The notes under the pieces are model-generated. The model was not told the origin of the DNA and did no database searches. It worked only from the letters and a program-made list of their open reading frames with translations. From the IMG/VR virus record IMGVR_UViG_3300028197_000002: a DNA stretch of 64,000 bases; one strand, written 5' to 3'. The DNA is from a virus (lineage: Duplodnaviria; Caudoviricetes). Positions 39,357-56,948 of the stretch are shown piece by piece. Both the position numbers and the translations under genes were made by a program. The stretch's first letter is position 1. Each line of letters starts with the position of its first letter.

Positions 39357-40655
39357 ATGAAAAAAACAAAGGAGCAAAAAAGAAGAACTAAAAATAAAAA
39401 TAAATTAAAAAGAAAAGCAAATAAGAAGAAACTTTTAAATGCTGCTTTTTTCAGAGCCATAGATTTTCTTGATGTCAAGAAATATTTCATGTCTTTGCCT
39501 AATGAAGTACGCAGGACTTTTTTAAAAGAAAGTTCTTGGCCTAGCTACAAAATTATTTTTCATTCTGGATGTAGAATGAAACAGTATAAACTTCACAGTC
39601 AACTTAAAGAAAGTCTTTTATTGACGATTGATAAAACACTTGAAAAAGTAGAATTAGAAGTTCAAAATAGAAAAATAAAATTTAATGACGTTCCTTTTCT
39701 TTTGACCGTTTATGGACTTTTTAATTTTTCATCTAAATTAGAAATAAAAAATGATAGTCATGAATTGAAAAAGATAAAATCTGTGTCCTTAAAAGCTATT
39801 GAAAAAATTCGTCCTCTTTTGCAAGATGCTAGGAAGTCTTATTTGGATGAATTTGTTAATTGTGCAATGCCTGTTGCTTTGATGCTTTTTGATTATGAAG
39901 GAGGGCATTATCCTGATTTTAAGATTCATAAAGACTCAAAAAATCGTGCATTTCCTGTAATATGCATTACTCCTTTGATTTTGAAAAAAGAAAAACTAAC
40001 CACTAAAGATGGTGGCGATAGGTTTGGGTTTCCTTGTGTTAATTTTGAAACGGATGGACTAAAAGTAAACCCTGTATTCTTCCCTTCAGGGACAATTGAA
40101 AACGAAGATATATTACACGTATACATTCAAGAACATGCAATAAGTAGACTAAAAGAAAGACTTGATCTTCCTATTGGGAAAAAACACTTGATGGAATTTT
40201 TAGGTAGGTCATTAGCAAACCCTGTTGTTGTGGGAAAAGATGGAGATTCTTTTTTAATTGAATATAAATTAGTTGGATATAAATTAGGCTATCTGATTGT
40301 TTCAAACGAAGGAAAGTACGCTTTAGTTAGAAGTTTCAAATTTATAACAATGACTGGAACTCCTGAGTTTAAGATGATAACGAAAAAACTTCGAGCATCT
40401 AAACATGACATGACCCATCTGAAACTTGATCAATTAGATTCGATGTTGTCTTCTGATTTATTCGAAGACCAGTTTATAAAAGATGTCCTTGTTGATTGTG
40501 ATTTGGGGCATCTTAATGAATTAGCGGAGTTAATGAAATCTCAAAGTGATTCTGATTTTGATTTTGATTTTAGCGAGCCATTAAAAATAGCAGATGATGT
40601 TAAAAAGTTACTTAAATTGGATGATTATCAAAATCCCAAATCAACAATAACATAA
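39357..40655 (+). CDS. Hypothetical protein (432 aa, basic N-terminus)
   Basis: Long ORF; YIQEHAISRLKERL motif; no confident family. Confidence 0.7.
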   Translation: MKKTKEQKRRTKNKNKLKRKANKKKLLNAAFFRAIDFLDVKKYFMSLPNEVRRTFLKESSWPSYKIIFHSGCRMKQYKLHSQLKESLLLTIDKTLEKVELEVQNRKIKFNDVPFLLTVYGLFNFSSKLEIKNDSHELKKIKSVSLKAIEKIRPLLQDARKSYLDEFVNCAMPVALMLFDYEGGHYPDFKIHKDSKNRAFPVICITPLILKKEKLTTKDGGDRFGFPCVNFETDGLKVNPVFFPSGTIENEDILHVYIQEHAISRLKERLDLPIGKKHLMEFLGRSLANPVVVGKDGDSFLIEYKLVGYKLGYLIVSNEGKYALVRSFKFITMTGTPEFKMITKKLRASKHDMTHLKLDQLDSMLSSDLFEDQFIKDVLVDCDLGHLNELAELMKSQSDSDFDFDFSEPLKIADDVKKLLKLDDYQNPKSTIT

Positions 40656-41248
40656 TGATTTCCGTTGTCTATAATATTATCTTCAAAATCCATTAGGTCA
40701 ATTCCGTATTTGTCTAGCTCGTTTATAGTTCTGAATAGTTCGCTTAATCTTTCATGCTCTTCAGGAGTATTTATGTTGTACATGTCTAGAACCTTTGCTT
40801 GCTTTTCTGTTGGTTCGTAGTCAAGCCAATCCGCCGCCTTGTCGAAATCTCCCATTAAAGCTAGCTCTAAAAAGTGGTCGCTTCTGTATTTCATTGAGTT
40901 TCCAGCGAGTTTTTCAACTATTATCGCAGAGGAATTTAATTCAGGAACTCTTTTTATTTTTTTCCCCTTTACCCAATCGAAAACCTTAACTATATTCTTA
41001 CTGTTAAGTCTTTGTGCTTTGACAACATTATCTACGTCTTCTTGATGAGATGTTATTTTTATTAATTTATTGGAGCTTTTGGGGTGTTGGTATAAAGTGG
41101 CAAACGAGCCTTCAGCTACCTTTTTCAGTGTCTTGCTGAAGCCTAGAATTTTTGATACATTTGATTTCTGGGTCTTTTCTTTTTGTAGAAATGGCGCGTC
41201 CCATAGTTGATCAAGTTTATTTTCGTTTAGCCAATCTTTAAATTCCAT
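40628..41248 (-). CDS. Protein-kinase-like fold enzyme with T4-type leader
   Basis: AEGSFA Gly-loop, LIKIT Lys, IVEKL, DFEDNI catalytic-like loop, VIVDLG; N-terminus MEFKDWLNE. Confidence 0.65.
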   Translation of the reverse strand: MEFKDWLNENKLDQLWDAPFLQKEKTQKSNVSKILGFSKTLKKVAEGSFATLYQHPKSSNKLIKITSHQEDVDNVVKAQRLNSKNIVKVFDWVKGKKIKRVPELNSSAIIVEKLAGNSMKYRSDHFLELALMGDFDKAADWLDYEPTEKQAKVLDMYNINTPEEHERLSELFRTINELDKYGIDLMDFEDNIIDNGNHYVIVDLGF

Positions 41249-41254
41249 GTAGGT

Positions 41255-41260
41255 TATTTA
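41255..41260 (-). promoter_or_regulatory. T4-like late promoter core (TAAATA)
   Basis: CATAAATA on the minus strand, 6 nt before the kinase ATG. Confidence 0.4.
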
Positions 41261-41565
41261 TGCAGCATGAAATTAAATACAAATATAAAAAAATAGTAAG
41301 TTATTATTTCACTGCTGAATATAGTGACTATTCAATACCGTATTTGATTGACAAGGTTAAGGTTTTAGTGCCTGATGATGAGGACGTTTTTGAAACTAGA
41401 ATAGAAGAGTTGCAGGATTCTGAACTTTTAAAGATGCGAATGAAGTGGAGAAAAAAAATAAATAAAATTTGCGAATCTTACAGGAAAGCAGATAAGCCTC
41501 CATCAGATGCGGCCAGAAAAATATCTAGTGTGTTGAAGTCTTTTACAGGAGTTGATTTCATATAA
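41260..41565 (+). CDS. Hypothetical protein
   Basis: ORF track. Confidence 0.55.
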   Translation: MQHEIKYKYKKIVSYYFTAEYSDYSIPYLIDKVKVLVPDDEDVFETRIEELQDSELLKMRMKWRKKINKICESYRKADKPPSDAARKISSVLKSFTGVDFI

Positions 41566-41582
41566 AGAAAGCGAGAGCTGAC

Positions 41583-41903
41583 ATGTCGAAAGATTTAGAT
41601 TCAATTTTTGCAGATTGGTTTGCAAAGAAATCTGAGAAAAAAGTCAATAAAATTGAAAAAAAATGGATTAAGGGCAATGAGCCTAATGATCCCGATGAAG
41701 ATTGCGGTGGCGATCATTGGCATGTTAATGAAATGATGCATTGTGGAGAGGCGTATGATATGACTTGGGACAATGCTAAAGAAGCATTTTTAGCTGGGGC
41801 TAATGGAGAAGAATGGGAGATGAGTATGAGCAACTCTCTGTTTTGTGATTTAGATGAAGTTATTTCAGATGCTTATGAACAAGGTAAAAAGGAGAATGAA
41901 TAA
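41583..41903 (+). CDS. Hypothetical acidic protein
   Basis: ORF track; TAATG coupling to next gene. Confidence 0.6.
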   Translation: MSKDLDSIFADWFAKKSEKKVNKIEKKWIKGNEPNDPDEDCGGDHWHVNEMMHCGEAYDMTWDNAKEAFLAGANGEEWEMSMSNSLFCDLDEVISDAYEQGKKENE

Positions 41904-42406
41904 TGGGTTGGGAAGTTAAAAATAATCAGTTTTTTTGTAACACAAGCGATACTTTTTTCGGCCCTTATTTAGATGAGTCAATTTGGCCCGACATGGATTG
42001 GGGATGGGATCAACCTAAGACTAGACTTTTTTATGATTGTTTTTGTGATTTTCTTGAAACGAAACCCGTAAAAGGTTTAACAGGAGATGATCCGAGGAGC
42101 TTTTCCAAAAAACAGTTGGAAAAAGTAGTTGGTCTATGGGAAGAACTTTGGATGCGACTAGAAATTGCAGTTGCAGATTTGCCATCTACTGCAAAAGAAA
42201 TGGGACTAAACCTTTCGGATAACATTAGTTCTTCTGAGAATTTATTTCGTTATATTTACGATTCTCATCAAAAAGCCTTGAAGAAAGTTGCTAAAAAGAA
42301 AGTTGCTAAAAAGAAAGTTGCTAAAAAGAAAGTTGCTAAAAAGAAAGTTGTTAAAAAGAAAGTTGTTAAAAAGAAAGTAAAGAAAAAGACTGTTAGGAAA
42401 GGTTAG
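41903..42406 (+). CDS. Hypothetical protein with histone H1-like (KKVAK)n tail
   Basis: C-terminal KKVAK x4 plus KKVVK x2. Confidence 0.7.
   Translation: MGWEVKNNQFFCNTSDTFFGPYLDESIWPDMDWGWDQPKTRLFYDCFCDFLETKPVKGLTGDDPRSFSKKQLEKVVGLWEELWMRLEIAVADLPSTAKEMGLNLSDNISSSENLFRYIYDSHQKALKKVAKKKVAKKKVAKKKVAKKKVVKKKVVKKKVKKKTVRKG
42281..42378 (+). repeat. 15-bp coding tandem repeat
   Basis: AAGAAAGTTGCTAAA x4, AAGAAAGTTGTTAAA x2, plus a partial copy. Confidence 0.95.
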
Positions 42407-42409
42407 ATA

Positions 42410-42733
42410 ATGTATAGTTTTTTAAATTTTGTAAATCGAAAATGGAATCAAATTGTTTTTTGGTTTCATGATTTTAGCGTTAGACTTGATGTTAGTTGGA
42501 TGGTCCGAGCTTCAGTGTGGGCGTATGATAAAATGTATTGGGAGTTACCAGAGAAATATCAGACTATAAATGGTGTCTCTCTAAGAGAATGTAAGTTGGA
42601 ACGAGAACTTGAGGTTGCAAGGCATCAAATGCAATATTATGCCAATTATGCAAATGATCTTCAGTGGCAGCTTATAAATATGATGCCAGAGGTGGTAGAA
42701 GAAAAAGAAGAAAAAGAATTGATAGAAATGTAG
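42410..42733 (+). CDS. Hypothetical protein
   Basis: ORF track. Confidence 0.55.
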   Translation: MYSFLNFVNRKWNQIVFWFHDFSVRLDVSWMVRASVWAYDKMYWELPEKYQTINGVSLRECKLERELEVARHQMQYYANYANDLQWQLINMMPEVVEEKEEKELIEM

Positions 42734-42738
42734 ATTTA

Positions 42739-44466
42739 TTAAAAAAATGACAGATAGTCTATTGTTTTATTTGTTGTTATGTGAGGATTAACAAAATTTT
42801 CTTCAAAATACTTCTTGTTCTTATTAGTTTTTTGAAGACTTGTGTTCAAATCAAATTCTTTGAATTGTCTAATTATTTCTTGGCTGTTGTTTTTATGGTT
42901 TTTTATAACTAAAAAGTTTTCTAGACTATAGGCAGGATGCTCATATCTTATGTTTTTTTCACATACTATAACTTTGTGATTCATGTATAGGCTCTCTAGA
43001 ACCACAATTGGACAAGGGTCATATTTACTAGTTAAAAATAAATAGTCACATTCTTCTAGAATTGAGTGTGGATTTTTTAAAACATCTATAAACTTGAGGT
43101 TTGGTGCATTTGTTTCTATTTGACCACCAATCCATACAAAGTCATACTCTGGACAGGCTTTAGCTGTTTCAATAAATAGTTTGAAATTTTTTCTAGGAAT
43201 GGGAGTTCCACACATCCCAATTTTTACACGTTCGTTTTGTTTTTTTCTATTTTCATTTTCATCAATTTTCATAAGTCTATTTTTATGAATAAATTCTGGC
43301 ACAACAAAAGTTTTTCTTTTTATTTCTGAAGAAAAATTAAAATGATTTTGTATCTTATTTCTGATTATTTGTGCTACAAAAAATGTTGCTTTAGAGTTGG
43401 TGATTAAACTAAACAATCCTTGATCTGGTTCTTGCCAAAATTTCCTAAAATCTTTCATTATGCTTTCATAGGTTTCATGAAAATGATATATTGTCTTGTT
43501 TGCAAGATGTGAAAATGCACTGTCTCGAATCATAGGGCTGAGAGAATTGCTGTAGATGAGTTTAGGTTTATTTTTATTTAAAATATCTAATAAGTTGTTG
43601 GCATTGTAATAGAATGCATGTGTAATTTTTTTATTTAGGACAAAGCAATCACTGGGGTTAGGATTTAAGAACACTACATTTTCATGACCTTGATCCACCA
43701 GATAGTTGGCTAAGTCTTGAGCGAAGAATGGTGCTCCTGTCACTGTAGAAGAATGGTTCACAATGACTATAGCTTCTTTTGGCAACTTTATTATATTAGG
43801 TTTTTTTAACTCTTTAATTCTGAACCCAGCATCTCGGATAATTTGCCCCAATAACCTTTCTGCTAAATGTGTAAAAGAACCACCACTCACATACCCGTTT
43901 GGCATTTTATCATACCATTCATCTATAATTTCATTTGTTAAGATTTTTATTATAACTTTAAAATCAACCATGAACATTGTGCAAGATACAAATTCTAGGC
44001 TTTGAAGTTTGTTTTCATACCAACGTTTTTGCTTCAAAACCTGATATCCACACATTTTGTAATCACTTTGAATAAGTGTAGAGATATTTTTCTTTATAGT
44101 ATCATCTGATGAAATTAGAGAGTCTACTAATAAATTTCTTCTTTTAAAAAGCTGTTCTTCACTTTTTTTTCGATGGACGTTTTTAGTGTGTAATTTTATT
44201 AAATAACCATAATTTTTTTTTCGAATCTTTTTTAATGTTTTTAAGAATGGTCCAATGTCCATGCCTTTATTTGGATATTTGTCAATTTTTGCGTTTGGAA
44301 ATGATTTTAATATTTCATTAGAAATATCTTTATTTTCATCACATAAAGTGATGTAAAGATCAAATTTTGCTTTTAGCTTTTTGAGTTTTTCTTCAAAGTA
44401 CCACCAGTGGTCTGTGTAGTAGACATGTAGAACTATTGCTATTTTTGTGTTGGCATATTTTATCAT
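42739..44466 (-). CDS. Rhamnan synthesis F (RgpF)-like domain fused to a GT-B (GT4-like) domain
   Basis: IVLHVYY, NKGMDIGPF, KLHTK, HLAERL; C-terminal RKNF..F, LFLTSKYDPCPIVVLESL. Confidence 0.8.
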   Translation of the reverse strand: MIKYANTKIAIVLHVYYTDHWWYFEEKLKKLKAKFDLYITLCDENKDISNEILKSFPNAKIDKYPNKGMDIGPFLKTLKKIRKKNYGYLIKLHTKNVHRKKSEEQLFKRRNLLVDSLISSDDTIKKNISTLIQSDYKMCGYQVLKQKRWYENKLQSLEFVSCTMFMVDFKVIIKILTNEIIDEWYDKMPNGYVSGGSFTHLAERLLGQIIRDAGFRIKELKKPNIIKLPKEAIVIVNHSSTVTGAPFFAQDLANYLVDQGHENVVFLNPNPSDCFVLNKKITHAFYYNANNLLDILNKNKPKLIYSNSLSPMIRDSAFSHLANKTIYHFHETYESIMKDFRKFWQEPDQGLFSLITNSKATFFVAQIIRNKIQNHFNFSSEIKRKTFVVPEFIHKNRLMKIDENENRKKQNERVKIGMCGTPIPRKNFKLFIETAKACPEYDFVWIGGQIETNAPNLKFIDVLKNPHSILEECDYLFLTSKYDPCPIVVLESLYMNHKVIVCEKNIRYEHPAYSLENFLVIKNHKNNSQEIIRQFKEFDLNTSLQKTNKNKKYFEENFVNPHITTNKTIDYLSFF

Positions 44467-44485
44467 TTATTTCTATATATCTTTT

Positions 44486-45214
44486 ATGGAAAGTTTTAAC
44501 AATTGGCTTATAAGAGAGCAAAGTAGCAAAAAAACAGTTTTATCTGTATTTGACTTCGATGGAACAATAGCAAATGTCCCAGAAAAACCTAGTTCAGATG
44601 ATAAGAAGCATCATTGGGATGGAAAAGATTGGTGGGGTTCGTCTGCTTCTTTAGAGCCTCCTTTCTATGATGGTTGGGTCAATGATGAAGTTGTGAGTGC
44701 TTTTAAAAAAGCCAAATCTGATCCTGAAACACATGCTATTCTTCTCACTGGAAGAAGAGGTGTTAATTCTCATGCTGTAAGGACTGTTCTTCGCAATCAA
44801 GGTCTTCATGGCAGAAGGATTATTCCTGATTCTAATCAAAAAGAAAAAAATAAGTACAAAGATCTTATAGATCAAAAAAAAGATATTCCTCATAAAATGA
44901 ATCATGATTCTCATGATGAGTATTTTAGTGGAGATCATAGAACCGAGCCTAAGTATCCTATTGATCCTAATAGTAAAAAAGGCAAACCAGCAGGTGATAC
45001 AATGAGTCACAAGACTTATGTAGTTAAAAATTTAATGCATGATGGGATCAGAGAAGTTCACTTTTGGGATGATAGAGATGATCATGTTGACAATTGGATC
45101 AAGTTGGCAAAAGAACTAAAAGAAAAATATTCTAATTTAAAAATAATTTTACATAAAGTAAATCCTCCTAGTTCTTCAAAACAGAAAGCCAAGATTGATC
45201 ATATTAATATTTAA
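44486..45214 (+). CDS. HAD-family phosphatase (Swiss-Army-knife RNA-repair type) with T4-type leader
   Basis: VFDFDGT, WW, LLTGRR, FWDDR; N-terminus MESFNNWLIRE. Confidence 0.75.
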   Translation: MESFNNWLIREQSSKKTVLSVFDFDGTIANVPEKPSSDDKKHHWDGKDWWGSSASLEPPFYDGWVNDEVVSAFKKAKSDPETHAILLTGRRGVNSHAVRTVLRNQGLHGRRIIPDSNQKEKNKYKDLIDQKKDIPHKMNHDSHDEYFSGDHRTEPKYPIDPNSKKGKPAGDTMSHKTYVVKNLMHDGIREVHFWDDRDDHVDNWIKLAKELKEKYSNLKIILHKVNPPSSSKQKAKIDHINI

Positions 45215-45225
45215 AGGATATAACA

Positions 45226-45597
45226 ATGAGTTACACAGCACTTGTTTTAGACAAAGATTCTAGAGATAAGTTGATTTCTAGATTCAAAGATGACATCCCA
45301 GAAGGATGGAAAGTTATTGCACATCACATGACAATAAATATGGGAGATGCAGAAGGCGGTCCTGCTGAAAATATGGTTGGGGATGAAGCGCCTTTAACTG
45401 TAAAGACATTTGCTAAAGATGATTTAGTTATGGCGGTTGGAGTTGTTTCGCCTGTTCCAAGTAAAAATGATATAAAACACATCACTTTAGCCGTCAATAG
45501 AAAAGAAGGAGGGAAGCCTTTTTTTAGCAACAAGTTGAAAGATTGGAATTCAGTTGCCCCTCTGGTTTTAAAAGGTCTTGTCAAGGTTGTTAATTAG
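45226..45597 (+). CDS. 2H phosphoesterase (tRNA-ligase cyclic phosphodiesterase-like)
   Basis: Two HxT motifs: HHMTINMG and KHITLAVN. Confidence 0.8.
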   Translation: MSYTALVLDKDSRDKLISRFKDDIPEGWKVIAHHMTINMGDAEGGPAENMVGDEAPLTVKTFAKDDLVMAVGVVSPVPSKNDIKHITLAVNRKEGGKPFFSNKLKDWNSVAPLVLKGLVKVVN

Positions 45598-45651
45598 CCA
45601 ACTAATCTTTTATGAAATTTGCATTTGACAATGATGCCAATTGAAATTTGT

Positions 45652-46536
45652 TTAAGTATCGCATTGCCCAAGGATTTTTTTATCGGCGTGAGTTGAGTTT
45701 TGTTGGTTATATTTAAAATTGTTTAAAATCATTAAAGTTTCTTTTATCCAATCTTGTTTCGAATTTGTTTTTTTCATAACTAATGAACGAAATCCTTCTG
45801 GAGGATGTTCATCATTATCAGAAAACCACAACAACTCTGGATTTACCAACAAATTAACAAGATTATTTTTTTTATAATAATCATAAAATTCTGGAACTTT
45901 AAAAGGATGATTTTCTTCGTAAGCAACACCAAGAAGCATAGGCCAAGCTATTTCTAAAGTCATAGAAAATTGATAATAATTATCGTTATAAGAAAGAACG
46001 TTGAAAATATGTTGCCAAAAACTTTTTGGGAATCTTTTAATAGTCTCGCTTTTCACTATGCATTGTGAAGATGGAGGAAAACAAACAAATGATGGTGGTG
46101 TCATTACTATATTTAAATTCATGTAATTCCACATTTCTTTAAACTGATATAGGTAGTTGTTTCTTTTTTCAAAATTATAAATGGCAGTAGTTTTTGAATT
46201 CCAATGATTCTCTATATCTCCATTCAAATTATAAAAATGATCCTTCAATTTAATTTTTTTTAATTTTTCAAAATTATGTGACATTGAAAATTGTTGATGG
46301 AATGAATTTTCGTGACCATGTATAAATCCTACATATTCAGGCATTTCATTCCAACGAGTCAAAATATAATGAATATAAGATCTAAATTCCTCCGCCCCCA
46401 CATTTTCAATTTTTTCAAAATTCTTTATTGGCAAGTTCTTTTTAGATTTGGAAACTACCAAATAATCAATCCCAGATTTTTCTATCCAAGAGATTTCTTC
46501 ATTATAATGAGATGAAACTATTATCAAGTCGTTCAT
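45652..46536 (-). CDS. DUF3431-like protein
   Basis: IVSSHYNEEISW, NVGAEE..YIHYI, FIHGHENSFHQ. Confidence 0.8.
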   Translation of the reverse strand: MNDLIIVSSHYNEEISWIEKSGIDYLVVSKSKKNLPIKNFEKIENVGAEEFRSYIHYILTRWNEMPEYVGFIHGHENSFHQQFSMSHNFEKLKKIKLKDHFYNLNGDIENHWNSKTTAIYNFEKRNNYLYQFKEMWNYMNLNIVMTPPSFVCFPPSSQCIVKSETIKRFPKSFWQHIFNVLSYNDNYYQFSMTLEIAWPMLLGVAYEENHPFKVPEFYDYYKKNNLVNLLVNPELLWFSDNDEHPPEGFRSLVMKKTNSKQDWIKETLMILNNFKYNQQNSTHADKKILGQCDT

Positions 46537-46590
46537 AAATTTATTATAGTATAAAAATCTTTTTGTTTACTTGTGGGATGAAAAAAGGTC

Positions 46591-46649
46591 TTAATATTAA
46601 AAACAAAAGTGATTTAAGTTTTTGACTTTAGAAGTATTAATTATTATTT
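46591..46649 (+). repeat. Direct repeat copy 1
   Basis: 46599-46649 is identical over 51 bp to 47874-47924; includes the ferredoxin last codon and stop. Confidence 0.92.
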
Positions 46650-47021
46650 GGCGGCTTTGAGTTCTGCCAAATTCTGCGCCGTTTCGACGAGGCGATCCCA
46701 ATTTTCCTCTATGTACGCCGGAGGCCCACCCATATCGGCCTGTGCCACTGCTATCTCTTCAGTAGGAACCATCTCGATAGCATCCCAAGGACAAACTTTA
46801 ACATCATACATTTTACCCTTATTACCGGGAACATGAATGCATTGTTCACAACCTATACAAGTAGATAGATCAATCTCGCACCATTGAGTTACTCCCTGTT
46901 TTATCTGGAATATACAATCGACAGGGCATACTTCTAAACAAGCCTCACAACCGGTGCAATTATCTGCCTGAATGATTGCTAATTCTTTTGGAATCTTTTT
47001 TCTCACTGCTTTTTTTGCCAT
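46644..47021 (-). CDS. 2[4Fe-4S] dicluster ferredoxin
   Basis: CTGCEACLEVCP and CIGCEQC...VCPWD; visibly GC-richer than flanks. Confidence 0.92.
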   Translation of the reverse strand: MAKKAVRKKIPKELAIIQADNCTGCEACLEVCPVDCIFQIKQGVTQWCEIDLSTCIGCEQCIHVPGNKGKMYDVKVCPWDAIEMVPTEEIAVAQADMGGPPAYIEENWDRLVETAQNLAELKAAK

Positions 47022-47061
47022 AAATCAACCCCGTCTGCACAAATCTATCTGTAATTAGATA

Positions 47062-47101
47062 TTAATATTAAAAATAAAAGTGATTTAAGTTTTTGACTTT
47101 A
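47062..47101 (+). repeat. Direct repeat copy 2 (partial)
   Basis: TTAATATTAAAAAtAAAAGTGATTTAAGTTTTTGACTTTA, 39/40 identical to 46591-46630. Confidence 0.9.
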
Positions 47102-47161
47102 TAATGAAAAAATTTTTTTTAATGGTACAATAGAATCTTAACTTTGGGATAATTTCAATCA

Positions 47162-47833: not shown

Positions 47834-47873
47834 TTATGTTGCACAAATATTTTTTATTTCTTTTTGATTGTGA

Positions 47874-48594: not shown

Positions 48595-48605
48595 TAGTTT
48601 ATGGT
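48595..48605 (+). promoter_or_regulatory. TAGTTTRYGGT motif 2
   Basis: TAGTTTATGGT after an A-tract; TTGACA at 48572. Confidence 0.65.
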
Positions 48606-48650
48606 TTAGTTGTTAGGTCAAATTACTTGTTGTTCTTGAAAGGAACTCTA

Positions 48651-49646: not shown

Positions 49647-49706
49647 AATTTAGAAGTGGTTTCTAAGTTTTGTTGTTTGTGTGTTTTTCCTTGAAAGGGA
49701 ATGTAA

Positions 49707-50063
49707 ATGTCGAAGACTGCTGAAAAGATTAACAAGAGTAAGATGGTTCGTGATTATCTTGCCGCCAATAATGATGCTGATACAAATAGTGTTGTAGAGC
49801 ATTTTAAGAGTGAAGGGATTGAGATTAACAAGCAATTTGTTTATCAAACCCGAACTCATATCAAGAACCCAAAGAAGCGTTCTTCTACCAATCCGAAAGC
49901 GAAGTCTTTCGCTAAGGCTAAGGCTAAAGCTAAAACTTCTTCTAAGCCAAAGATGGATCATTATGATTCTTTGGTTGCTGCCAAGAGGTTGCTTGAGTCT
50001 GTTGGGGGTGATTTGGGTCAAGCAAAAAAGAGTCTAGACACTCTTACCAAACTCATTTCGTAA
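49707..50063 (+). CDS. Small basic nucleoid-type protein (Planctomycete-like family)
   Basis: NKSKMVRDYL..GIEINKQFVY..AKAKAKAK..DSLVAAKRLLESVGGDLGQAKKSL. Confidence 0.65.
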   Translation: MSKTAEKINKSKMVRDYLAANNDADTNSVVEHFKSEGIEINKQFVYQTRTHIKNPKKRSSTNPKAKSFAKAKAKAKTSSKPKMDHYDSLVAAKRLLESVGGDLGQAKKSLDTLTKLIS

Positions 50064-50150
50064 GATGGTCTGGAACACTCAAAACACTCATTTCGTTGCT
50101 GAGAGGGGAAATAAGCCTCCAACTCAAAGCAACGAAATGAGTTTGTTTTG

Positions 50151-50840
50151 TTATATGTATTTTGAACTTCTGGAAATTTTACATGTATCATCAAACATAA
50201 TTAAACTGTCTATTGCTGAGATTAAGGCATCAGAAGTTAGGTTTAACATTTGTTTGTCTGATCTTAATTCGTGAACTATTTCTAATTGCAAAGAATTTAC
50301 GAATTGGTTTGGATACCACTTTTTGAAAAGTTGATTTAAATTATTTTTTGCCCTTCCTGCATATCTTTTTTTACCTTCATAAACACCAAATCCTTCATCT
50401 TCTAAAAAACTTACAAAGGCACTTTTTATTTTTGGAGAGCAAGTGTGGGAATATGAACTTGGGCCATGTCCGTACCCAACAATTATGTCAAGTTCTGGAT
50501 CATCTACATATTTTCTTACGCTGTCTCCACATCCATGAATATTTATTATAAAAACTCTTTCATCTAATGTTCTTTGTATTCTTGCAACATTTCTCAATAT
50601 TGGCTCTAAAAATTCTTCTCTTACAACGTCTTCTTGAATGTGAGATATGTTATTGCAGTCTGCCCTGTCATTTAGATGATCGACAGAATATCCTTTTTTC
50701 CACCCTCTATTAATAACAGAAAAAAGATTCATTTCTGATGCAACTAACTCTACAAGATAATCTGTATTTAAGTCATCTGGCCCATGTGGTGCAACTAATA
50801 CTACTGGCAAATCGCCTTTTGATACGCTAACTCTTTCCAT
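50151..50840 (-). CDS. N-formylglutamate amidohydrolase-like Zn hydrolase
   Basis: LVAPHG, INIHG, SLQLEI. Confidence 0.55.
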   Translation of the reverse strand: MERVSVSKGDLPVVLVAPHGPDDLNTDYLVELVASEMNLFSVINRGWKKGYSVDHLNDRADCNNISHIQEDVVREEFLEPILRNVARIQRTLDERVFIINIHGCGDSVRKYVDDPELDIIVGYGHGPSSYSHTCSPKIKSAFVSFLEDEGFGVYEGKKRYAGRAKNNLNQLFKKWYPNQFVNSLQLEIVHELRSDKQMLNLTSDALISAIDSLIMFDDTCKISRSSKYI

Positions 50841-50889
50841 TTTGACCTTTAAAATTAATATTATTTGTATCGAACATAAAAAAATAAAG

Positions 50890-50900
50890 TAGTTTACGGT
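50890..50900 (+). promoter_or_regulatory. TAGTTTRYGGT motif 3
   Basis: TAGTTTACGGT upstream of the sigma-like gene. Confidence 0.65.
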
Positions 50901-50913
50901 ACTAATTCGCAGA

Positions 50914-51930
50914 ATGATTATTTCTTTCGAAAGGAAACCTATGAATAATTTAGTTATTTCCCATAATAAATTATCAAAATCTGATGTTTTTGAAATCTCT
51001 CAAGAATTATCTGCTGTAAATTTAATTCTTAAAAAATATCATCAGAAGATGGCGACCAGAAAAGGCAGAAAAGGTTATCGAGACAGTGAGGGGAATAGTT
51101 TTACCGTTATTGATCTATTAAACTTAATTTATAAAAATAGAAAAGAAGATTGTATTAAAGTAAAAGGAATTTTAATTGATTGTGAAGATGTAGAGAAACT
51201 ATGCAATATTAAAGAAAAAGAATATTTACTTTTAAGCAACTATTCTCGTATGTTTTACGCTTTGTCTAAAAAACATTTTCTTTCTACTTCCATGTATGAC
51301 ATGGAAGATTTACAGAACGAATGTATAACTGCTTGTTTAAAGGCAATGTATGGATATGATGCTGAAACAGCAGGCAGGCAGCAAGTCGCTTCTCTTTTCA
51401 CATTTCTCTATAGGTCTGTGAATAATCATTTAATTAAGCTGAGTCGGACTATGCTTTCATCTCTAGACCGCAAAGCAGTAAAAATCAAATGTAAATTTAT
51501 GGACTTGAAAAATGAAAATCCCAATCTTACTTTTGATGATTTGGTTTCTAAATTAAGTTTATCTCCAAAAGAATTGAAAATATTAACCTGTGCTTTATCT
51601 TCAACCGTTTATCGAGAATCAGATTGCAATGGGGAAGATAAATCCTTGATTATTAATCAAGTTGTTGCAGAAAAAGAAAAAGAGTTGGAATTAGTAGAAT
51701 CTACTGTTATGAAAAACATGGGAGAAATTATTTTTACTTTATCTGAATTGGAGAAAGAAGTTTTACGGGGGTATTTGAATGAGAAATACCCTAGTGGAAA
51801 AAAGTCAAATCGAGGAATTGGCAAATTTGCAAAAAATTTAATTAATCCAAAAACTAAAAAACCATACAGTAGAATGGCTATAAGTTATGCTTGGAAGCGG
51901 GTTCAGGAAAAAATTAAAAAGGCTGCGTAA
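50914..51930 (+). CDS. Divergent sigma70-like factor
   Basis: Region-2-like DMEDLQNECITACLKAMYGYD..FTFLYRSVNNHL; region-4-like LSELEKEVL..YSRMAISYAWKRVQEKI; ends KKAA; start may be 50941. Confidence 0.65.
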   Translation: MIISFERKPMNNLVISHNKLSKSDVFEISQELSAVNLILKKYHQKMATRKGRKGYRDSEGNSFTVIDLLNLIYKNRKEDCIKVKGILIDCEDVEKLCNIKEKEYLLLSNYSRMFYALSKKHFLSTSMYDMEDLQNECITACLKAMYGYDAETAGRQQVASLFTFLYRSVNNHLIKLSRTMLSSLDRKAVKIKCKFMDLKNENPNLTFDDLVSKLSLSPKELKILTCALSSTVYRESDCNGEDKSLIINQVVAEKEKELELVESTVMKNMGEIIFTLSELEKEVLRGYLNEKYPSGKKSNRGIGKFAKNLINPKTKKPYSRMAISYAWKRVQEKIKKAA

Positions 51931-51943
51931 AAAAAAATAAAAG

Positions 51944-51954
51944 TAGTTTGCGGT
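51944..51954 (+). promoter_or_regulatory. TAGTTTRYGGT motif 4
   Basis: TAGTTTGCGGT upstream of the RuvB-like gene. Confidence 0.65.
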
Positions 51955-51980
51955 ATTTTTACCCTGAAGGAGAAAAACTA

Positions 51981-53120
51981 ATGCTTGAAAATTCATCCCA
52001 AGTCCAAAATGAGTTACTATTTAGAAAATTGACTGTTGAAGAAAGAAAATGGAAAATCTCCAGAAAGAATCCCGAATGCCCATTAAATAAATTCATTGGC
52101 AATCCCAAGGCTATCAGAAGGCTCGCTAGGGCTGCTTTTTCTGCTATGGGCAATAGGAATAGAGATTGTTCTGATTACTCTCTAGCTGTTTGTGGGCCTC
52201 CATCAACGGGTAAGACTTATTTGACGAAATTATTTGCTAAAACTATAGGTTTGCCATTAGTTGTAATCGAGCCTCAAACAGTAAAAAGAGTACAAAATAT
52301 TTTTGATGAAATTGCTTTGACTTGTCGTGAATTTTCTTGTGATGACATAGTTCAAGCTGGAGAATTGACGCTTAAGGCGGATGATAAAGGAAAGTTCTCG
52401 TTACCTCCAGTAATTGTTTTTATAGATGAAGTTCATAATCTTAAGTCAAATGTGGTTCAAGGTCTTTTGAAAGCAACAGAACCTAATGATAGGATTATGA
52501 TTACGGAAGAAGGTCAGCAAATTGCTACAAATAAAGTTTGTTGGATGATTGCTACAACAGATCGTGGAGATTTGTTTGATGCTTTCGACACTAGGTTTCA
52601 AAAAGTTAATCTTAGACTATATTCTAAAGACGAAATGGCTAAGATTGTCCAAATGAATAATTCTGATTGGGATATGGATGTTTGTAGGTTAGTTGCGACA
52701 TATAACCCTATTGTCCCAAGAGAAGCGATTGCTTTTGCTAAAGACATGCGCGTTGAACATGAAATGAATCCATCTGAGTGGCTGAATGTTGCCAAAAGAA
52801 CAGCGGAGGATCATGGAATAGATGAATTTGGAATGACCTATGCCAGATTGAATGTTCTTAAAGCATTAGGGCGATCAACGATGTCAGCATCACAGATGCC
52901 ATTTGTTGTTCATGTTAAAGAAGATGAATTGAAAAAGTATATTATGCCTCCTCTACTTGCAAGGACTCCTGACCAACAAGTTCCTTTTGTAACTGTTTGT
53001 AGCAGAGGATATTCTATAACAAAGGCTGGACTTGCAGAGTTAGACAAGAGAGGGATTTCTCATAGGGGACTTAAAGCAATGCCGGAGTCGGTCGCAGAAA
53101 TGTTTACGGATGCTGCATAA
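51981..53120 (+). CDS. RuvB-like AAA+ ATPase (Holliday junction helicase family)
   Basis: GPPSTGKT, FIDEVH, IATTDRG..FDTRF, RLYSKDE, GIDEFG, SRGYSIT winged-helix tail; ends DAA. Confidence 0.8.
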   Translation: MLENSSQVQNELLFRKLTVEERKWKISRKNPECPLNKFIGNPKAIRRLARAAFSAMGNRNRDCSDYSLAVCGPPSTGKTYLTKLFAKTIGLPLVVIEPQTVKRVQNIFDEIALTCREFSCDDIVQAGELTLKADDKGKFSLPPVIVFIDEVHNLKSNVVQGLLKATEPNDRIMITEEGQQIATNKVCWMIATTDRGDLFDAFDTRFQKVNLRLYSKDEMAKIVQMNNSDWDMDVCRLVATYNPIVPREAIAFAKDMRVEHEMNPSEWLNVAKRTAEDHGIDEFGMTYARLNVLKALGRSTMSASQMPFVVHVKEDELKKYIMPPLLARTPDQQVPFVTVCSRGYSITKAGLAELDKRGISHRGLKAMPESVAEMFTDAA

Positions 53121-53131
53121 AAAAACAATAT

Positions 53132-53142
53132 TAGTTTGTGGT
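53132..53142 (+). promoter_or_regulatory. TAGTTTRYGGT motif 5
   Basis: TAGTTTGTGGT after an A-tract. Confidence 0.65.
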
Positions 53143-53181
53143 AACTGAAGAAAGAAACACTTACTTAAAAAGGAGATTATT

Positions 53182-53346
53182 ATGCCCAATTGGTTGAAAG
53201 CTACGCTTGCATGTGGATTGGTTTGCTTGTTCATTCCACCTTTAATTGGTCTTTTTCTTGGCGGTGGTATTGTATTCATCGCATTTATAGTAGTGTGTCA
53301 TTTGGCGAGTGCAGCGGGAATACCCACTAAGTTTCTTGATGATTAA
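53182..53346 (+). CDS. Small membrane protein (54 aa)
   Basis: AAGGAG RBS; MPNWLKATLACGLVCLFIPPLIGLFLGGGIVFIAFIVVCH..., translated by hand. Confidence 0.65.
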   Translation: MPNWLKATLACGLVCLFIPPLIGLFLGGGIVFIAFIVVCHLASAAGIPTKFLDD

Positions 53347-53357
53347 GGATTGTAAGG

Positions 53358-53555
53358 ATGCAAGAAAAATATAAAGAAGCATTTAATATTTTAGAAGATT
53401 TAAAATTAATTCCAGAAGTAAATGATGAAGATTTAAATAAAATAAGTCATGTTCTTCGCTTCCAAAGAGAACTTATGTCTGTCTATTCAAGTGCTGTTAA
53501 TACTTTAGTTTCTGAAAAAATTAAACTTCAAGAGGAATTAGATGCAAATAATTAA
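53358..53555 (+). CDS. Small hypothetical protein
   Basis: ORF track, overlapping gene chain. Confidence 0.55.
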   Translation: MQEKYKEAFNILEDLKLIPEVNDEDLNKISHVLRFQRELMSVYSSAVNTLVSEKIKLQEELDANN

Positions 53556-53781
53556 AACAAAATCACTTGTTGATTACATGAAAAAAAGATCAACCCTAGA
53601 GGGTAGAAATTGGAACATTCCTGATTCTTATCTGGAAGAAATGTTTGTTCAAAAAGGGACTAGAATTTTTTTTGGTGTGGTTTTAGATGATTTAGGAAAT
53701 ATGTTAGAAGATAAAAAGAATAAAGATTTTTTCTTGTGTTGGCAACGAATGGAAGCAGAGCGTACTTTTGATGCAAGGTAA
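53542..53781 (+). CDS. Small hypothetical protein
   Basis: ORF track, overlapping gene chain. Confidence 0.55.
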   Translation: MQIIKTKSLVDYMKKRSTLEGRNWNIPDSYLEEMFVQKGTRIFFGVVLDDLGNMLEDKKNKDFFLCWQRMEAERTFDAR

Positions 53782-53965
53782 AAAAGTATATTTTAATACG
53801 AAGTCTCAATATGGAGTGGAAACCGTAGATGAATTAAGCAAGAAAGATTTTATTGATTTCGCAGCGTTTAATGCCGAAGTCAAAAGATTGTCTAAAGAAT
53901 ATACTCTTGCTGGTATGTCGGTTTATGTTAGTCAAAGATCATGTAAAGAATGGGGTCGGCAATGA
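53768..53965 (+). CDS. Small hypothetical protein
   Basis: ORF track; ATGA coupling to the ligase. Confidence 0.55.
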   Translation: MMQGKKVYFNTKSQYGVETVDELSKKDFIDFAAFNAEVKRLSKEYTLAGMSVYVSQRSCKEWGRQ

Positions 53966-55245
53966 GTTTTAAAGAATTAGAGAAATTTGTAGAAAAACTT
54001 AAATCCACAACAAGTACGCTTGATAAAGTAGAAATAATTAAAAATTGCAATTCTGATTTTATAAAAAATATTATTTTATATACATACCATCCTTTCAAGC
54101 AGTATCATGTTACTAGCAAAAATTTAAAGAAACGAAATGATTTGTTGGGTGTGCAAATGTGCCATTCTGATTTTTTTTCTTTACTAGATGGTCTTTCAAG
54201 TAGAGAAATTACTGGTCACGATGCAATTAAATCTGTAAATGCTTTTGTTTCAAACAATTCTGAGTATGAAGAACTTATTCATTGCGTAATTGATAAAGAT
54301 TTAAAAACTAGAACTGCTGCGAAGTTGATTAACAAGGCTTTGCCTAATTTCATTCCTGAATTTAGTGTTGCTCTTGCTGATGTCTATGCACCTAAATTAG
54401 TAAGCTGGAAAGATGAATGGTATGTCTCTAGAAAGCTAGATGGAGTTAGGTGTATCGCTGTTATAGACGATTTAGGAAACCCTACGCTCTATTCCAGAAC
54501 AGGAAAAGAATTTCATACCCTTGATGTTGTTGCTTCTGATGTTCGCAAACTAAAACTTAGAAATCAAGTTTTAGATGGAGAACTATGTCTGGTGGATGAA
54601 GATGGGAATGAAGACTTTCAAGGAATAATGAAACAGTTAAAGAAAAAAGATCATACGATTGCCAATCCATCCTATAAGGTATTTGATTTTTTAAATTTAG
54701 ATGAATTTAATTCAAAGGTTGGAGAGAGAAATCTTTCTCAAAGATTGAAATGTTTGTCAGAGACATTCCCAGAGGATTCAAATTCAACATTGTCTGTCTT
54801 GGAGCAAGAGATTGTTCAAGATGATGGTCATTTTGAAAATTGGATTTCAAAATCAAAGGAAAATGGTTGGGAAGGTTGTATGCTTAGAAAAAATACGGCA
54901 TACAAAGGAAAACGAAGCAAGGATTTGCTCAAATGCAAGTCGTTTTATGATAACGAATATGAAGTTCTGTCAACAGAGACAGGCCAATTTAGATATGTAA
55001 AAGATGGTTCTGAAACTGAAGAAGAAATGCTTTCTGCTGTCATTATTAAGCATAAAGGCCATGAAGTTCGTGTAGGGAGTGGTTGGAGTGTTGAGCAAAG
55101 ACAAGAGTATTTTAAGAACCCAGAAGGAATTATTGGAAAATTAATCTGTGTTCAATACTTTGAAGAAACTAAAAATCAATCTGGCGGGATTAGTTTGAGA
55201 TTTCCTACTATTAAGCATGTTTACGGAAATTCAAGAGATTTATAA
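53962..55245 (+). CDS. ATP-dependent DNA ligase
   Basis: SRKLDGVRC, LDGEL, VFDFL, EGCMLR, LKCK, OB-fold C-terminus with SLRFP. Confidence 0.95.
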   Translation: MSFKELEKFVEKLKSTTSTLDKVEIIKNCNSDFIKNIILYTYHPFKQYHVTSKNLKKRNDLLGVQMCHSDFFSLLDGLSSREITGHDAIKSVNAFVSNNSEYEELIHCVIDKDLKTRTAAKLINKALPNFIPEFSVALADVYAPKLVSWKDEWYVSRKLDGVRCIAVIDDLGNPTLYSRTGKEFHTLDVVASDVRKLKLRNQVLDGELCLVDEDGNEDFQGIMKQLKKKDHTIANPSYKVFDFLNLDEFNSKVGERNLSQRLKCLSETFPEDSNSTLSVLEQEIVQDDGHFENWISKSKENGWEGCMLRKNTAYKGKRSKDLLKCKSFYDNEYEVLSTETGQFRYVKDGSETEEEMLSAVIIKHKGHEVRVGSGWSVEQRQEYFKNPEGIIGKLICVQYFEETKNQSGGISLRFPTIKHVYGNSRDL

Positions 55246-55289
55246 TAAAAATAGCAAAAAGATGCTCTTTTCTCATCTACATAACTTAC

Positions 55290-55697
55290 ATGAAGATGCC
55301 AGAGGTGTTATTATCTAATCTTAGGGATATGGTTTTTGAAAGAAATATAGAAAAAGTAAAATCTATATTAGAACTTTCCCCTGACGAAAAATTAATTCCA
55401 GAGGAATTTGTTACTTTGGATGAAGTTAATTTAATTGTTTTGGAAAGTTTGGAAGAAGAAGATGTCAAACATATTGAAGAAAGTGAAAATATTTTATATT
55501 CAATATCTCTTTCTGCAAGCACTTTAAAAAGCATTTTTTACAAGATTAAAACTAGAATTTTCACTAATTATATGTCAAAATTAGTTTCACGGGGCTTTTT
55601 TGAATGTGCTTTTTCAGAAGAAGATAATGATTTCATTTTTTCTGTATCTGAAAAAGGCAAGAAACACGGAATTGAAAAAATTCCTGAATGGTTATAA
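55290..55697 (+). CDS. Hypothetical acidic protein
   Basis: ORF track. Confidence 0.6.
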   Translation: MKMPEVLLSNLRDMVFERNIEKVKSILELSPDEKLIPEEFVTLDEVNLIVLESLEEEDVKHIEESENILYSISLSASTLKSIFYKIKTRIFTNYMSKLVSRGFFECAFSEEDNDFIFSVSEKGKKHGIEKIPEWL

Positions 55698-55707
55698 AGG
55701 ATTCTAA

Positions 55708-55902
55708 ATGCAAAACGAAACTCATTCTGAGTATTGTTCTCTTTCAAATTTTGATTGGCAAAGATTTAATAAAAAAGTCGAAAATTTGTTGAGTAAAATA
55801 AAATCAAAAAAAGAAGCAGAGAATACTATTTTAATTTTGAATTTAATTAAAACAAAAGACGCTCAACTAATTAATTTGGAGAGCGAAAATGAAGAATGTT
55901 AG
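55708..55902 (+). CDS. Small hypothetical protein
   Basis: ORF track. Confidence 0.5.
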   Translation: MQNETHSEYCSLSNFDWQRFNKKVENLLSKIKSKKEAENTILILNLIKTKDAQLINLESENEEC

Positions 55903-56078
55903 CAACTTTACTTACAGCCATTATTATACTAGGATTATATTATTTATTTTGGGGCGACTCAAATGATGATAATAATAATAATGATGATGATAATGAACTG
56001 AAAGAAATAGACGATGACGTAATCGCCTATGCAATAGTTAATGATATGTTTGATAATGATGGAGTTGAAATTGATTAA
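55896..56078 (+). CDS. Small single-pass membrane protein with Asp/Asn tail
   Basis: N-terminal hydrophobic helix. Confidence 0.55.
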   Translation: MLATLLTAIIILGLYYLFWGDSNDDNNNNDDDNELKEIDDDVIAYAIVNDMFDNDGVEID

Positions 56079-56433
56079 AAAAGTTTTTCTCGTATTGGGA
56101 TTGTTTGTTTGTGGCTGTAGTTCTATTTCTTTTAGAGCAAATGCGGATGAGTTTTTCATTCAGCCTCATATAGCACCTGCGGTTAAAGTAGAACAGTATC
56201 CGAGTTATTGGTATCAGGAATATCCAAGATACTTTGTTCCTCCAAGAGTTTATCCAACAAATCCTTATCACCTTCCTCCAACTTATATCATCCCTTCTTC
56301 TCCAACTCCTTATTACTATCTCCCAGCCCCAATATATCCATCTTATCCATCTTATGTAAATGTTCCTGTTTTAGTTGAAAGAGGATTTTTTTGCAAAAGA
56401 TATCATTGGACATATCAGCGACGATATTGGTGA
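56071..56433 (+). CDS. Pro/Tyr-rich putative lipoprotein
   Basis: TTG start, KKVFLVLGLFVCGC lipobox-like signal. Confidence 0.5.
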   Translation: MIKKVFLVLGLFVCGCSSISFRANADEFFIQPHIAPAVKVEQYPSYWYQEYPRYFVPPRVYPTNPYHLPPTYIIPSSPTPYYYLPAPIYPSYPSYVNVPVLVERGFFCKRYHWTYQRRYW

Positions 56434-56674
56434 TTTTCCAGATAAGATGATGGAGATGTCAAATCAAAATTCTTTATGGACTCTCGGAGTTCAGACTTTT
56501 TAAATTTTTTAACTAAGATGACAAATAATTTTTCTCCTGCATCTTTAAATAAGCAGGGGATTATGCCGTTGATAATTAATTGAAAGCCATGTTTTAATAT
56601 TATAAATCCATATTTGGACGCAAATAAGAAATGAGCTAGATATTCCATTTCTTTTTCTTTTGAATGTTTGCTCA

Positions 56675-56896
56675 TTATTCTTTTGTTTTATCGAAATTTT
56701 TGTATTTAAATTTCTTTACATCAATATTTTTTTCGTCTGCTTTTGGCCCAAGTTTTTGTATTGCATCTGCCGCGATTGAAGTGAAATAAAGAGCCGGATT
56801 TTCGCCTCTAATGTATCCGTCAGGATACGCCCAATGAGCAAGCCCTGTTCGACTTTGCTTTTCGTTCAATAATACAAATTCTTTAAAACTAATCAT
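56675..56896 (-). CDS. Small protein with T4-type leader
   Basis: MISFKEFVLLNE; CTAAATA 9 nt upstream (56906-56911). Confidence 0.65.
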   Translation of the reverse strand: MISFKEFVLLNEKQSRTGLAHWAYPDGYIRGENPALYFTSIAADAIQKLGPKADEKNIDVKKFKYKNFDKTKE

Positions 56897-56948
56897 AATA
56901 AATAATATTTAGTTGCTGGGAAGCCAAAATGTGAAAAATATTTGAGAT

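Follow-up and report, generated by a model that had tools for sequence, protein, structure and literature searches.

[quoted passage not shown] The propeptides of giant phages of the phiKZ/SPN3US type are long, are not known to share a short N-terminal tag and are reported to be cleaved at an S/A/G-x-E motif, unlike the proteins described here, which have a single short T4-type tag in common. T4 Pnkp, an RNA-repair enzyme, is made early and stays in the cytoplasm, unpackaged. We know of no protein-kinase-like (PKL) kinase, HAD 3'-phosphatase, 2H enzyme or CCA-adding enzyme among the T4 head proteins, and to our knowledge the delivery of pre-made RNA-repair or kinase enzymes as a counter-defence has not been described for T4. 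The T4 leaders, read from NC_000866, begin with MKTFKEF in IPI and are MKTYQEFIAE in IPII and IPIII; within the IPIII CTS, targeting depends on residues 4 and 7 and processing on residues 8 and 10 (PMC9026906). In the phiKZ/SPN3US-type phages, a prohead protease related to gp21 processes ejection (E) proteins and propeptides, and the present phage would resemble them in bringing many proteins into a large head and trimming them after Glu with an S77-family protease (PMC5694885, PMC10052503). A literature search found no paper tying capsid-targeting sequences to huge or jumbo phages, and the 'moraphage' paper (PMC12619734) has no bearing on the tag.

The window (the whole 64-kb stretch of viral DNA that was analysed) is best explained as belonging to a marine huge phage that is uncultured and falls in a deep-branching clade, its relatives there having a T4-type head. 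No exact match to it was found in IMG/VR or among JGI metagenome contigs, and megablast returned no GenBank phage. DNA of this phage is present in marine metagenomes from at least 13 studies, so the phenomenon would bear on an abundant ocean virus. Two marine runs contain 98-99% of the stretch, and RNA runs covered only small portions of it. The original prediction placed T4-like N-termini at positions 41248 (minus strand), 44486 (plus strand) and 56896 (minus strand), each ending in (L/I)-x-E, and all three open reading frames, start codons and leaders were confirmed, with L-N-E, I-R-E and L-N-E read from the respective translations. The first belongs to a 206-aa mini protein-kinase-like enzyme (40628..41248, minus strand) with the leader MEFKDWLNE (codons 41222-41248); the second to a 242-aa HAD_SAK_1 phosphatase, a predicted polynucleotide 3'-phosphatase (44486..45214, plus strand), with the leader MESFNNWLIRE (44486-44518); and the third to a 73-aa protein (56675..56896, minus strand) with the leader MISFKEFVLLNE (56861-56896). 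All three tags begin at Met1 and the homologues begin at the equivalent place; for the HAD gene, an in-frame GTG at 44447 would run into a divergent gene, and the homologues start with MESFNNW. The three proteins have nothing in common outside the leader (E > 0.2 in blastp comparisons among them), and no relatives of any of them were found in cultured phages. The three N-termini are best explained as instances of one portable tag, some 8-12 residues long, with the consensus M-x(1-2)-F-x-x-[W/F]-[L/I/V]-x(0-2)-E.

The likeness to the T4 CTS extends to position, length and composition. Both lie directly after the Met, span 9-12 residues and place aromatics at i and i+3 (Y4/F7 in T4; F3/W6, F4/W7 and F4/F7 in the kinase-like protein, the HAD protein and the 73-aa protein, respectively); an aliphatic residue and a Glu come next and make up an (L/I)-x-E site. 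The MKTFKEF of T4 IPI and the MISFKEF of the window are almost identical strings. The conserved tag positions (F, W/F at +3, L/I/V at +4, and then Glu) coincide with IPIII residues 4, 7, 8 and 10, which have been mapped as functional; the spacing of the Glu is exact in the kinase-like protein and one to two residues longer in the other two. Like the T4 CTS, the tag is carried by unrelated proteins, in phages whose relatives own gp21/gp22/gp23-type head genes, and the tagged cargo of one relative includes an ADP-ribosyltransferase, as is T4 Alt. Unlike in the T4 CTS, the second aromatic is preferably Trp; dozens of genes are tagged per genome in the relatives versus a handful in T4; and many tags of the 572-kb relative G004 end in W-L-E, which puts Trp at P3 instead of the L/I of T4 sites. 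The T4 tags scored low (2.3 and -0.5) on a position-specific scoring matrix (PSSM) trained on G004, a model that requires Glu directly after Leu, and were therefore compared position by position, without use of these scores. Since the tag is almost that of IPI and IPIII, it would suit the existing T4 system of expression, packaging and processing.

Short N-terminal motifs rich in Lys, Phe, Asn, Glu and Ile might arise by chance or through composition in an AT-rich genome, and the window has a GC content of 30%. The regular expression proposed with the original prediction was moreover written after the fact for a short motif; when it was run on the window, only these three proteins matched among all starts of open reading frames of at least 40 aa in six frames. 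Its core occurred once in 19,277 internal positions, and from this about 0.01 N-terminal matches would be expected. The PSSM, trained only on G004 and thus independent of the window, gave the three window tags scores of 11.1-13.7, and three window genes reached a score of 10 or more versus 0.06 expected; its strongest columns in G004 were F and W/F. The tag was enriched at N-termini over internal positions 9-52-fold in G004 and at least 12-18-fold in the relative G001, whereas G010, an equally AT-rich phage (318 kb, 30% GC), was not enriched. Together with the conservation of the tag in homologues at 45-60% identity, these results make an origin by chance or composition barely credible; the PSSM counts and G010 effectively refute it.

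The tag behaves as a module separate from the proteins that carry it. In IMG/VR huge-phage relatives of 320 and 572 kb, roughly 20 to 40 proteins that are unrelated to one another carry it. Homologues of the same protein may lack it (about 10 of 51 for the HAD protein, most of which have the leader, and one or two of 12 for the kinase-like protein), which indicates a portable module, and in hhalign comparisons of the kinase family with two tagged G001 proteins the tag was the sole aligned part. Within the tag, Phe is encoded by TTT (19) and TTC (14), Leu by all six codons and Glu by GAA or GAG, and this free synonymous variation around fixed residues points to selection at the protein level; the position that varies least is Trp, for which there is just one codon, a GC-containing one. 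The tag is real, non-random, portable, under selection as protein and specific to the clade, and it goes together with a late-type promoter box.

This box had also been reported in the original prediction, as two TAAATA motifs 6-9 nt upstream and one CTATATA, and all three were found in the sequence: TAAATA at 41255..41260 (minus strand), ending 6 nt before the kinase ATG; CTATATA at 44473..44479 (plus strand), ending 6 nt before the HAD ATG; and TAAATA at 56906..56911 (minus strand), ending 9 nt upstream of the start codon of the 73-aa gene. The motif TA[AGT]ATA occurs 3-9 nt upstream of the start codon in 16 of 28 tagged versus 54 of 976 other genes in G004, nine of 19 versus 27 of 460 in G001, and three of four versus six of 98 in the window, an 8- to 10-fold enrichment on tagged genes. 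It also precedes the major capsid protein (MCP), scaffold and large tail-like genes. The late promoters of T4 and S-PM2 are TATAAATA and NATAAATA, respectively (PMC2984593), and the box resembles that of T4; at 4-9 nt from the ATG it leaves too little room for a T4-style late promoter together with a Shine-Dalgarno sequence, and its role as a promoter is therefore one that we infer. The same proximity would imply late mRNAs that are leaderless or nearly so, and the conserved N-terminus could then be a by-product of expression, its first codons being constrained for initiation. The sharp peak of the box 4-5 nt before ATGs in G004 and the scarcity of Shine-Dalgarno-like motifs there (five of 33 tagged versus 312 of 970 other genes) agree with such a constraint. 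It is nevertheless quite improbable as the origin of the tag, because residues are fixed while synonymous sites vary freely, the most conserved residue is Trp, whose one codon contains GC, the 54 G004 genes with the box but no tag include MCP and scaffold, and 12 of the 28 tagged genes have no box.

No head genes were found within the 64-kb window, and the evidence for a T4-type head comes from relatives that use the tag. Among phages whose head genes are known, G004 is the nearest, and the window has only 16 of its 102 genes in common with it, at 25-52% identity. Relatives were found in IMG/VR only by an alignment-based scan; single-protein scans with the HAD and RuvB-like proteins returned nothing. 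G001, G002 and G004, all distantly related to the window, have a gp21/gp22/gp23-type head module in the order portal-protease-scaffold-MCP, with Pfam matches to PF07068 (Gp23, E 1e-85 to 1e-89) and PF03420 (Peptidase_S77, the gp21-type prohead protease, E ~1e-27), so that the search for a gp21-like protease suggested in the original prediction was successful in these three; no S77 protease was detected in the tag-using G003, an 85%-complete record. The NCLDV capsid family PF04451 was not found in the relatives, a result of little weight, given that a control search was equally silent. The N-termini of the relatives' MCPs read ..FLNE-A and their proteases contain [FV]LNE; LNE is the tripeptide that closes two of the three window tags, and this was counted in favour of a capsid tag. 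G010 has a T4-type head and lacks the tag enrichment, which shows that such a head need not imply the tag.

A portable helix detached from the folds that bear it could dock onto a partner outside the capsid, serving as a degron or unfolding tag for phage ClpX, as a chaperone handle or as part of a non-capsid late complex. A ClpX homologue is encoded in the window (34023-35291) and in G004, with 52% identity between them, and G003 is tagged while its S77 protease went undetected. Such a partner would, however, leave unexplained the near-identity to IPI and IPIII at experimentally mapped positions, the terminal [LI]-x-E common to the N-termini of MCPs and proteases, and the co-occurrence of the tag with the box of the head genes, and we consider it unlikely. 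No tag-like unit was found in the G004 scaffold (best PSSM score -0.2), and a complex predicted from two copies of this scaffold and a tagged G004 protein of 56 aa had a score of 0.00 and a partner pLDDT of about 33, which speaks neither for nor against docking.

The tag is thus likely to be a T4-type capsid-targeting sequence with new cargo, a reading towards which the computational checks that were run all pointed. Since the leader closely matches the T4 head-loading tag, the kinase-like protein, the phosphatase and the 73-aa protein are probably packaged in the head and injected with the DNA. Through the two aromatics, a freshly synthesized late protein would attach to the prohead's scaffolding core, and a gp21-type prohead protease would cut after the Glu of the tag (LNE, IRE, LNE). 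The mature enzyme would remain in the head and be ejected together with the DNA, so that at time zero the cell would receive a kinase-like enzyme, a small protein and a HAD 3'-phosphatase. Docking, cleavage, packaging and injection, and an anti-defence role of the payload, are what we infer from these comparisons. Tagged proteins of G004 include an ART-PolyVal, comparable to Alt, which T4 packages, an AAA_33 P-loop kinase, a 2H/Acb1-like enzyme, a PolyA_pol/CCA-adding enzyme and a HAD_SAK_1 protein. Rather more tentatively, a widespread marine clade of huge phages with T4-type heads may tag dozens of enzymes per genome and inject an RNA-repair and host-takeover kit (PKL kinase, HAD 3'-phosphatase, 2H/Acb1-like esterase, CCA-adding enzyme, P-loop kinase and ADP-ribosyltransferase) that would counter tRNA-cleaving and nucleotide-signalling defences before phage gene expression. 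Should the tag indeed act as a capsid address, a simple search for N-terminal motifs would reveal from sequence alone which proteins uncultured huge phages inject, and RNA-repair enzymes and a protein-kinase-like enzyme would be deliverable pre-made.

The kinase identity claimed for the 206-aa protein is borne out by its predicted fold and catalytic residues. Its AF2 model (mean pLDDT 85.6) has the features of a bilobal PKL kinase, with an ATP-binding Lys, a catalytic D-x4-N loop and a metal-binding Asp (the DFG equivalent), and 13 homologues all retain K64, D187, N191 and D203. The best Foldseek matches were APH(2'') and Ser/Thr kinases, with a probability of 0.99-1.0 at TM scores of only 0.33-0.44, and Pfam gave a weak kinase-clan match (PF10707, 19 bits) under the cut-off. 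The chain stops directly after DLG, which makes it a truncated, atypical member of the PKL group. Residues 1-27 mostly have a pLDDT below 50 (about 22 residues, in segments 1-3, 9-17 and 19-27), and this suggests that leader and linker are detached and not packed against the domain.

The assignment of the 242-aa protein as an RNA-repair phosphatase likewise held, with PF10307 (HAD_SAK_1) at 43.4 bits versus a gathering cut-off of 25.6, and a match to phrog_415 ('polynucleotide kinase', E 5e-7). HAD motifs I-IV are intact, and their D23, D25, T27, T88, K176, D196 and D199 are the same in all of 45 homologues. A gene without a leader begins 12 nt 3' of the HAD gene (45226..45597, plus strand) and encodes a candidate 2H-type phosphoesterase of 123 aa, with two HxT motifs (HMT and HIT), a match to phrog_36523 and a sub-threshold match to PF08302 (tRNA_lig_CPD, E 2.7e-4, 20.9 bits versus a cut-off of 23). 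The two are predicted to form an RNA end-healing pair. The G004 orthologue of the 2H-type protein (38% identity) starts with MRFREFAL, with ATAAATA 5 nt upstream. RNA-ligase-type genes lie at 21872-22507 and 58399-59493; no P-loop polynucleotide kinase was found in the window, and G004 has a tagged one of the AAA_33 family. The HAD DxDGT phosphatase, the adjoining candidate 2H phosphoesterase and the ligase-type genes recall T4 Pnkp (PseT)/Rnl and the 'Swiss Army Knife' HAD_SAK_1 proteins. Unlike in T4 Pnkp, the activities are divided among separate small proteins, and in contrast to that early enzyme the window phosphatase combines a late-type box with a tag of the kind used for head loading.

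The 73-aa protein matched no family in Pfam or PHROG. Its homologues (13, and two more in G004) all have the leader, a variable linker, [LI]-x-E-K and the sequence AHWAYPDGYIR..YF.PIAADA.

The three leader-bearing ORFs of the original prediction were recovered by translation: a 206-aa protein beginning MEFKDWLNE (40628–41248, minus strand), a 242-aa protein beginning MESFNNWLIRE (44486–45214, plus strand) and a 73-aa protein beginning MISFKEFVLLNE (56675–56896, minus strand). As had been claimed, each leader ends in (L/I)-x-E (L-N-E, I-R-E and L-N-E, respectively), and the ATG is preceded by TAAATA in the 206-aa and 73-aa genes (41255–41260 and 56906–56911, both minus strand; box ending 6 and 9 nt upstream) and by CTATATA in the 242-aa gene (44473–44479, plus strand; 6 nt upstream). 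The regular expression proposed for this leader, hereafter the tag, was run at every start codon of ORFs of at least 40 aa in six frames of the window and matched these three N-termini only. Because this expression was composed post hoc, a separate position matrix (PSSM) was trained on another genome, the huge-phage relative G004; it scored the three N-termini at 11.1–13.7, and three window genes reached a score of at least 10 versus 0.06 expected from internal positions. Beyond the tag the three proteins are mutually unrelated, and the pattern is not a product of chance. Degenerate tag-like N-termini were also seen in two small plus-strand ORFs adjoining the 206-aa gene: MYSFLNFVNRK at 42410–42733 (F4, F7 and V8, no Glu) and MSKDLDSIFADWFAKKSE at 41583–41903, with F-x-x-W-F eight residues in.

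PF10307 (43.4 bits; cut-off 25.6) identifies the 242-aa protein as a HAD_SAK_1 phosphatase, which also matches phrog_415, 'polynucleotide kinase'; every HAD catalytic position is invariant across 45 homologues, which upholds the predicted phosphatase identity. A 2H-type phosphoesterase gene with two HxT motifs and a sub-threshold PF08302 match (45226–45597, plus strand) begins 12 nt downstream. The kinase assignment of the 206-aa protein likewise held: its AF2 model contains a predicted protein-kinase-like domain (pLDDT 85.6), Foldseek returned APH(2'') and Ser/Thr kinases (probability 0.99–1.0, modest TM scores), and Lys64, Asp187, Asn191 and Asp203 are invariant among homologues. Since the chain ends directly past the DLG motif, it is best described as a putative atypical mini-kinase. 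The 73-aa protein had no family match in Pfam and PHROG searches; its 15 relatives have in common the tag, a variable linker, an [LI]-x-E-K junction and an AHWAYPDGYIR..YF.PIAADA core.

Comparison of homologues shows the tag to be a portable module. Most of the 51 close HAD homologues begin M..F[KR].W[LI]E.., about 10 of them lack the tag and start just before the DFDGT motif, and kinase homologues carry it in full, in part or not at all. Alignment of the kinase family with two tagged proteins of another phage by hhalign covered the first 8–28 residues only. In the kinase model, residues 1–27 are mostly of low confidence (segments 1–3, 9–17 and 19–27 below pLDDT 50), with a short helix at 3–9 followed by a low-confidence linker, and the tag is not packed onto the domain.

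No head genes lie within the 64-kb window. An alignment-based scan of IMG/VR for HAD relatives yielded contigs of 130–572 kb, of which G001 (320 kb), G002 (225 kb) and G004 (572 kb, complete, with terminal repeats) contain head genes in the order portal, protease, scaffold, major capsid protein (MCP). All three encode a capsid protein of the T4 Gp23 family (E 1e-85 to 1e-89) together with a gp21-type Peptidase_S77 protease (E about 1e-27); no S77 protease was detected in the 85%-complete record of another tag-using relative, G003. G004 is a distant relative and a different phage, because 16 of the 102 window genes are in common, at 25–52% identity and with partial synteny. The G004 MCP shares 70% identity with the MCP of LR756511.1, an uncultured phage of 595 kb, and about 30% with cyanophage gp23. 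Near the G004 head module, a 154-aa ORF (476469–476933, minus strand) is similar to the N-terminal portion of the MCP (..WEQTGLLEAAGDK..LLQSQ..) and may represent a shortened paralogue of it or a fragment of a vertex protein.

Tagged genes number 27 in G004 by strict criteria (about 33–45 by looser ones; for example MDFRVWLE, MEFRQWLVE, MKTFKEWIKE and MMNFKEFLLKE) and 16–21 in G001, with N-terminal over internal enrichments of 9–52-fold and 12–18-fold or more, respectively. An artefact of AT bias was ruled out by two control genomes without enrichment, G010 (318 kb, 30% GC, T4-type head present) and G007 (no T4-type head), and the tag is therefore specific to a sub-clade. Synonymous codons of the conserved tag residues vary freely, which shows that selection operates at the peptide level.

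In T4 (NC_000866), the internal proteins IPII and IPIII begin MKTYQEFIAE and IPI begins MKTFKEFTSTTTPVSTITE. T4 internal proteins co-purify with gp22; the first 10 residues of IPIII, its capsid targeting sequence, are enough to load foreign proteins, and an amber-suppressor scan mapped targeting to residues 4 and 7 and processing to residues 8 and 10, Asp at position 10 allowing targeting and blocking processing (reviewed in PMC9026906). The conserved positions of the tag, an aromatic residue, an aromatic at +3, an aliphatic at +4 and then Glu, are exactly those mapped in IPIII, although many G004 tags finish in W-L-E and not in L-x-E. The MCPs of G001, G002 and G004 all have ..F-L-N-E-A at the N-terminus and their proteases [FV]-L-N-E near it, the place where T4 gp24, gp23 and gp21 are trimmed. 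No sign that the tag copies a repeat unit of the scaffold protein was seen in G004. We consider it fairly probable that a T4-type capsid-targeting and propeptide tag directs the kinase, the RNA end-healing phosphatase and the small protein into the head of this marine huge phage. The mechanism would be a variant of a known one, on a larger scale in relatives and with a cargo and a lineage that are new. Weighing against this reading are a window free of head genes, the evolutionary distance of the relatives whose head genes are known, the missing S77 match in G003 and the W-L-E endings in G004.

The upstream box bears on timing. TA[AGT]ATA peaks sharply 4–5 nt before start codons in G004 (47 genes) and precedes 16 of 28 tagged versus 54 of 976 other genes there, 9 of 19 versus 27 of 460 in G001, and 3 of 4 versus 6 of 98 in the window. 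Among the untagged G004 genes with the box are those encoding MCP and scaffold, along with several tail-like ORFs of very large size. Genes marked by the box, whether for head, tail-like or tagged proteins, mostly have no Shine-Dalgarno motif. Late promoters read TATAAATA in T4 and KVP40 and NATAAATA in S-PM2 (PMC2984593), and we read the box as a putative late-promoter element; if so, tagged proteins would be in the cell during prohead assembly. Shine-Dalgarno motifs precede only 5 of 33 tagged G004 genes versus 312 of 970 others, and this scarcity, together with the very short distance from box to ATG, suggests near-leaderless mRNAs.

Most tagged proteins fall outside any Pfam family. The exceptions in G004 comprise an ART-PolyVal ADP-ribosyltransferase (T4 Alt, a packaged protein, is comparable), a P-loop kinase of the AAA_33 family, a 2H/Acb1-like esterase, a PolyA_pol/CCA-adding enzyme and the HAD_SAK_1 phosphatase. 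The last two belong to a set of three consecutive tagged G004 genes (528356–531083), which encode a 162-aa protein without assigned function (MKFKEWYLNE), the CCA-adding/poly(A) polymerase-type enzyme of 499 aa (MKSFSDFISIRE) and the HAD_SAK_1 phosphatase (MKIKGFKEW), and look like a tagged RNA-repair operon. This cargo would fit a putative injected kit for RNA repair and host modification. A point against packaging is that T4 Pnkp is not known to be packaged, whereas the RNA end-healing phosphatase here bears a putative head-loading tag. The window also encodes three untagged plus-strand ligases of ATP-dependent or RNA-ligase type: a 211-aa RNA_ligase-type protein (21872–22507), a WGR-domain ligase (58399–59493) and a standard ATP DNA ligase (53950–55245). 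Together with the HAD and 2H genes, these three nucleotidyltransferases might make up a complete pathway for RNA repair.

The window is gene-dense, with 30% GC, and contains two tRNAs, ClpX, PRPP synthase and a sigma-70-like factor. Its DNA is present in marine and seawater metagenomes from at least 13 studies, with no match among GenBank phages, IMG/VR and JGI contigs. The sigma-70-like gene (PF04542/PF04545; 37184–38077, plus strand; probable start ATG 37184, MENINFKDFFVDD) has an N-terminus that resembles the tag less strongly (PSSM 8.5) and closes with Asp-Asp; GGAG lies upstream, with no TAAATA box. Positions 1–20400 form a sugar-modification (decoration) island of about 20 kb, made up of genes resembling those for glycosyl-, sulfo-, methyl- and carbamoyltransferases. 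A phage-encoded 4Fe-4S ferredoxin lies at 46644–47021 (minus strand), and an N-formylglutamate-amidohydrolase-like gene (50151–50840, minus strand) adjoins a pair of sigma-like and RuvB-like AAA genes, an arrangement kept in both the window and G004.
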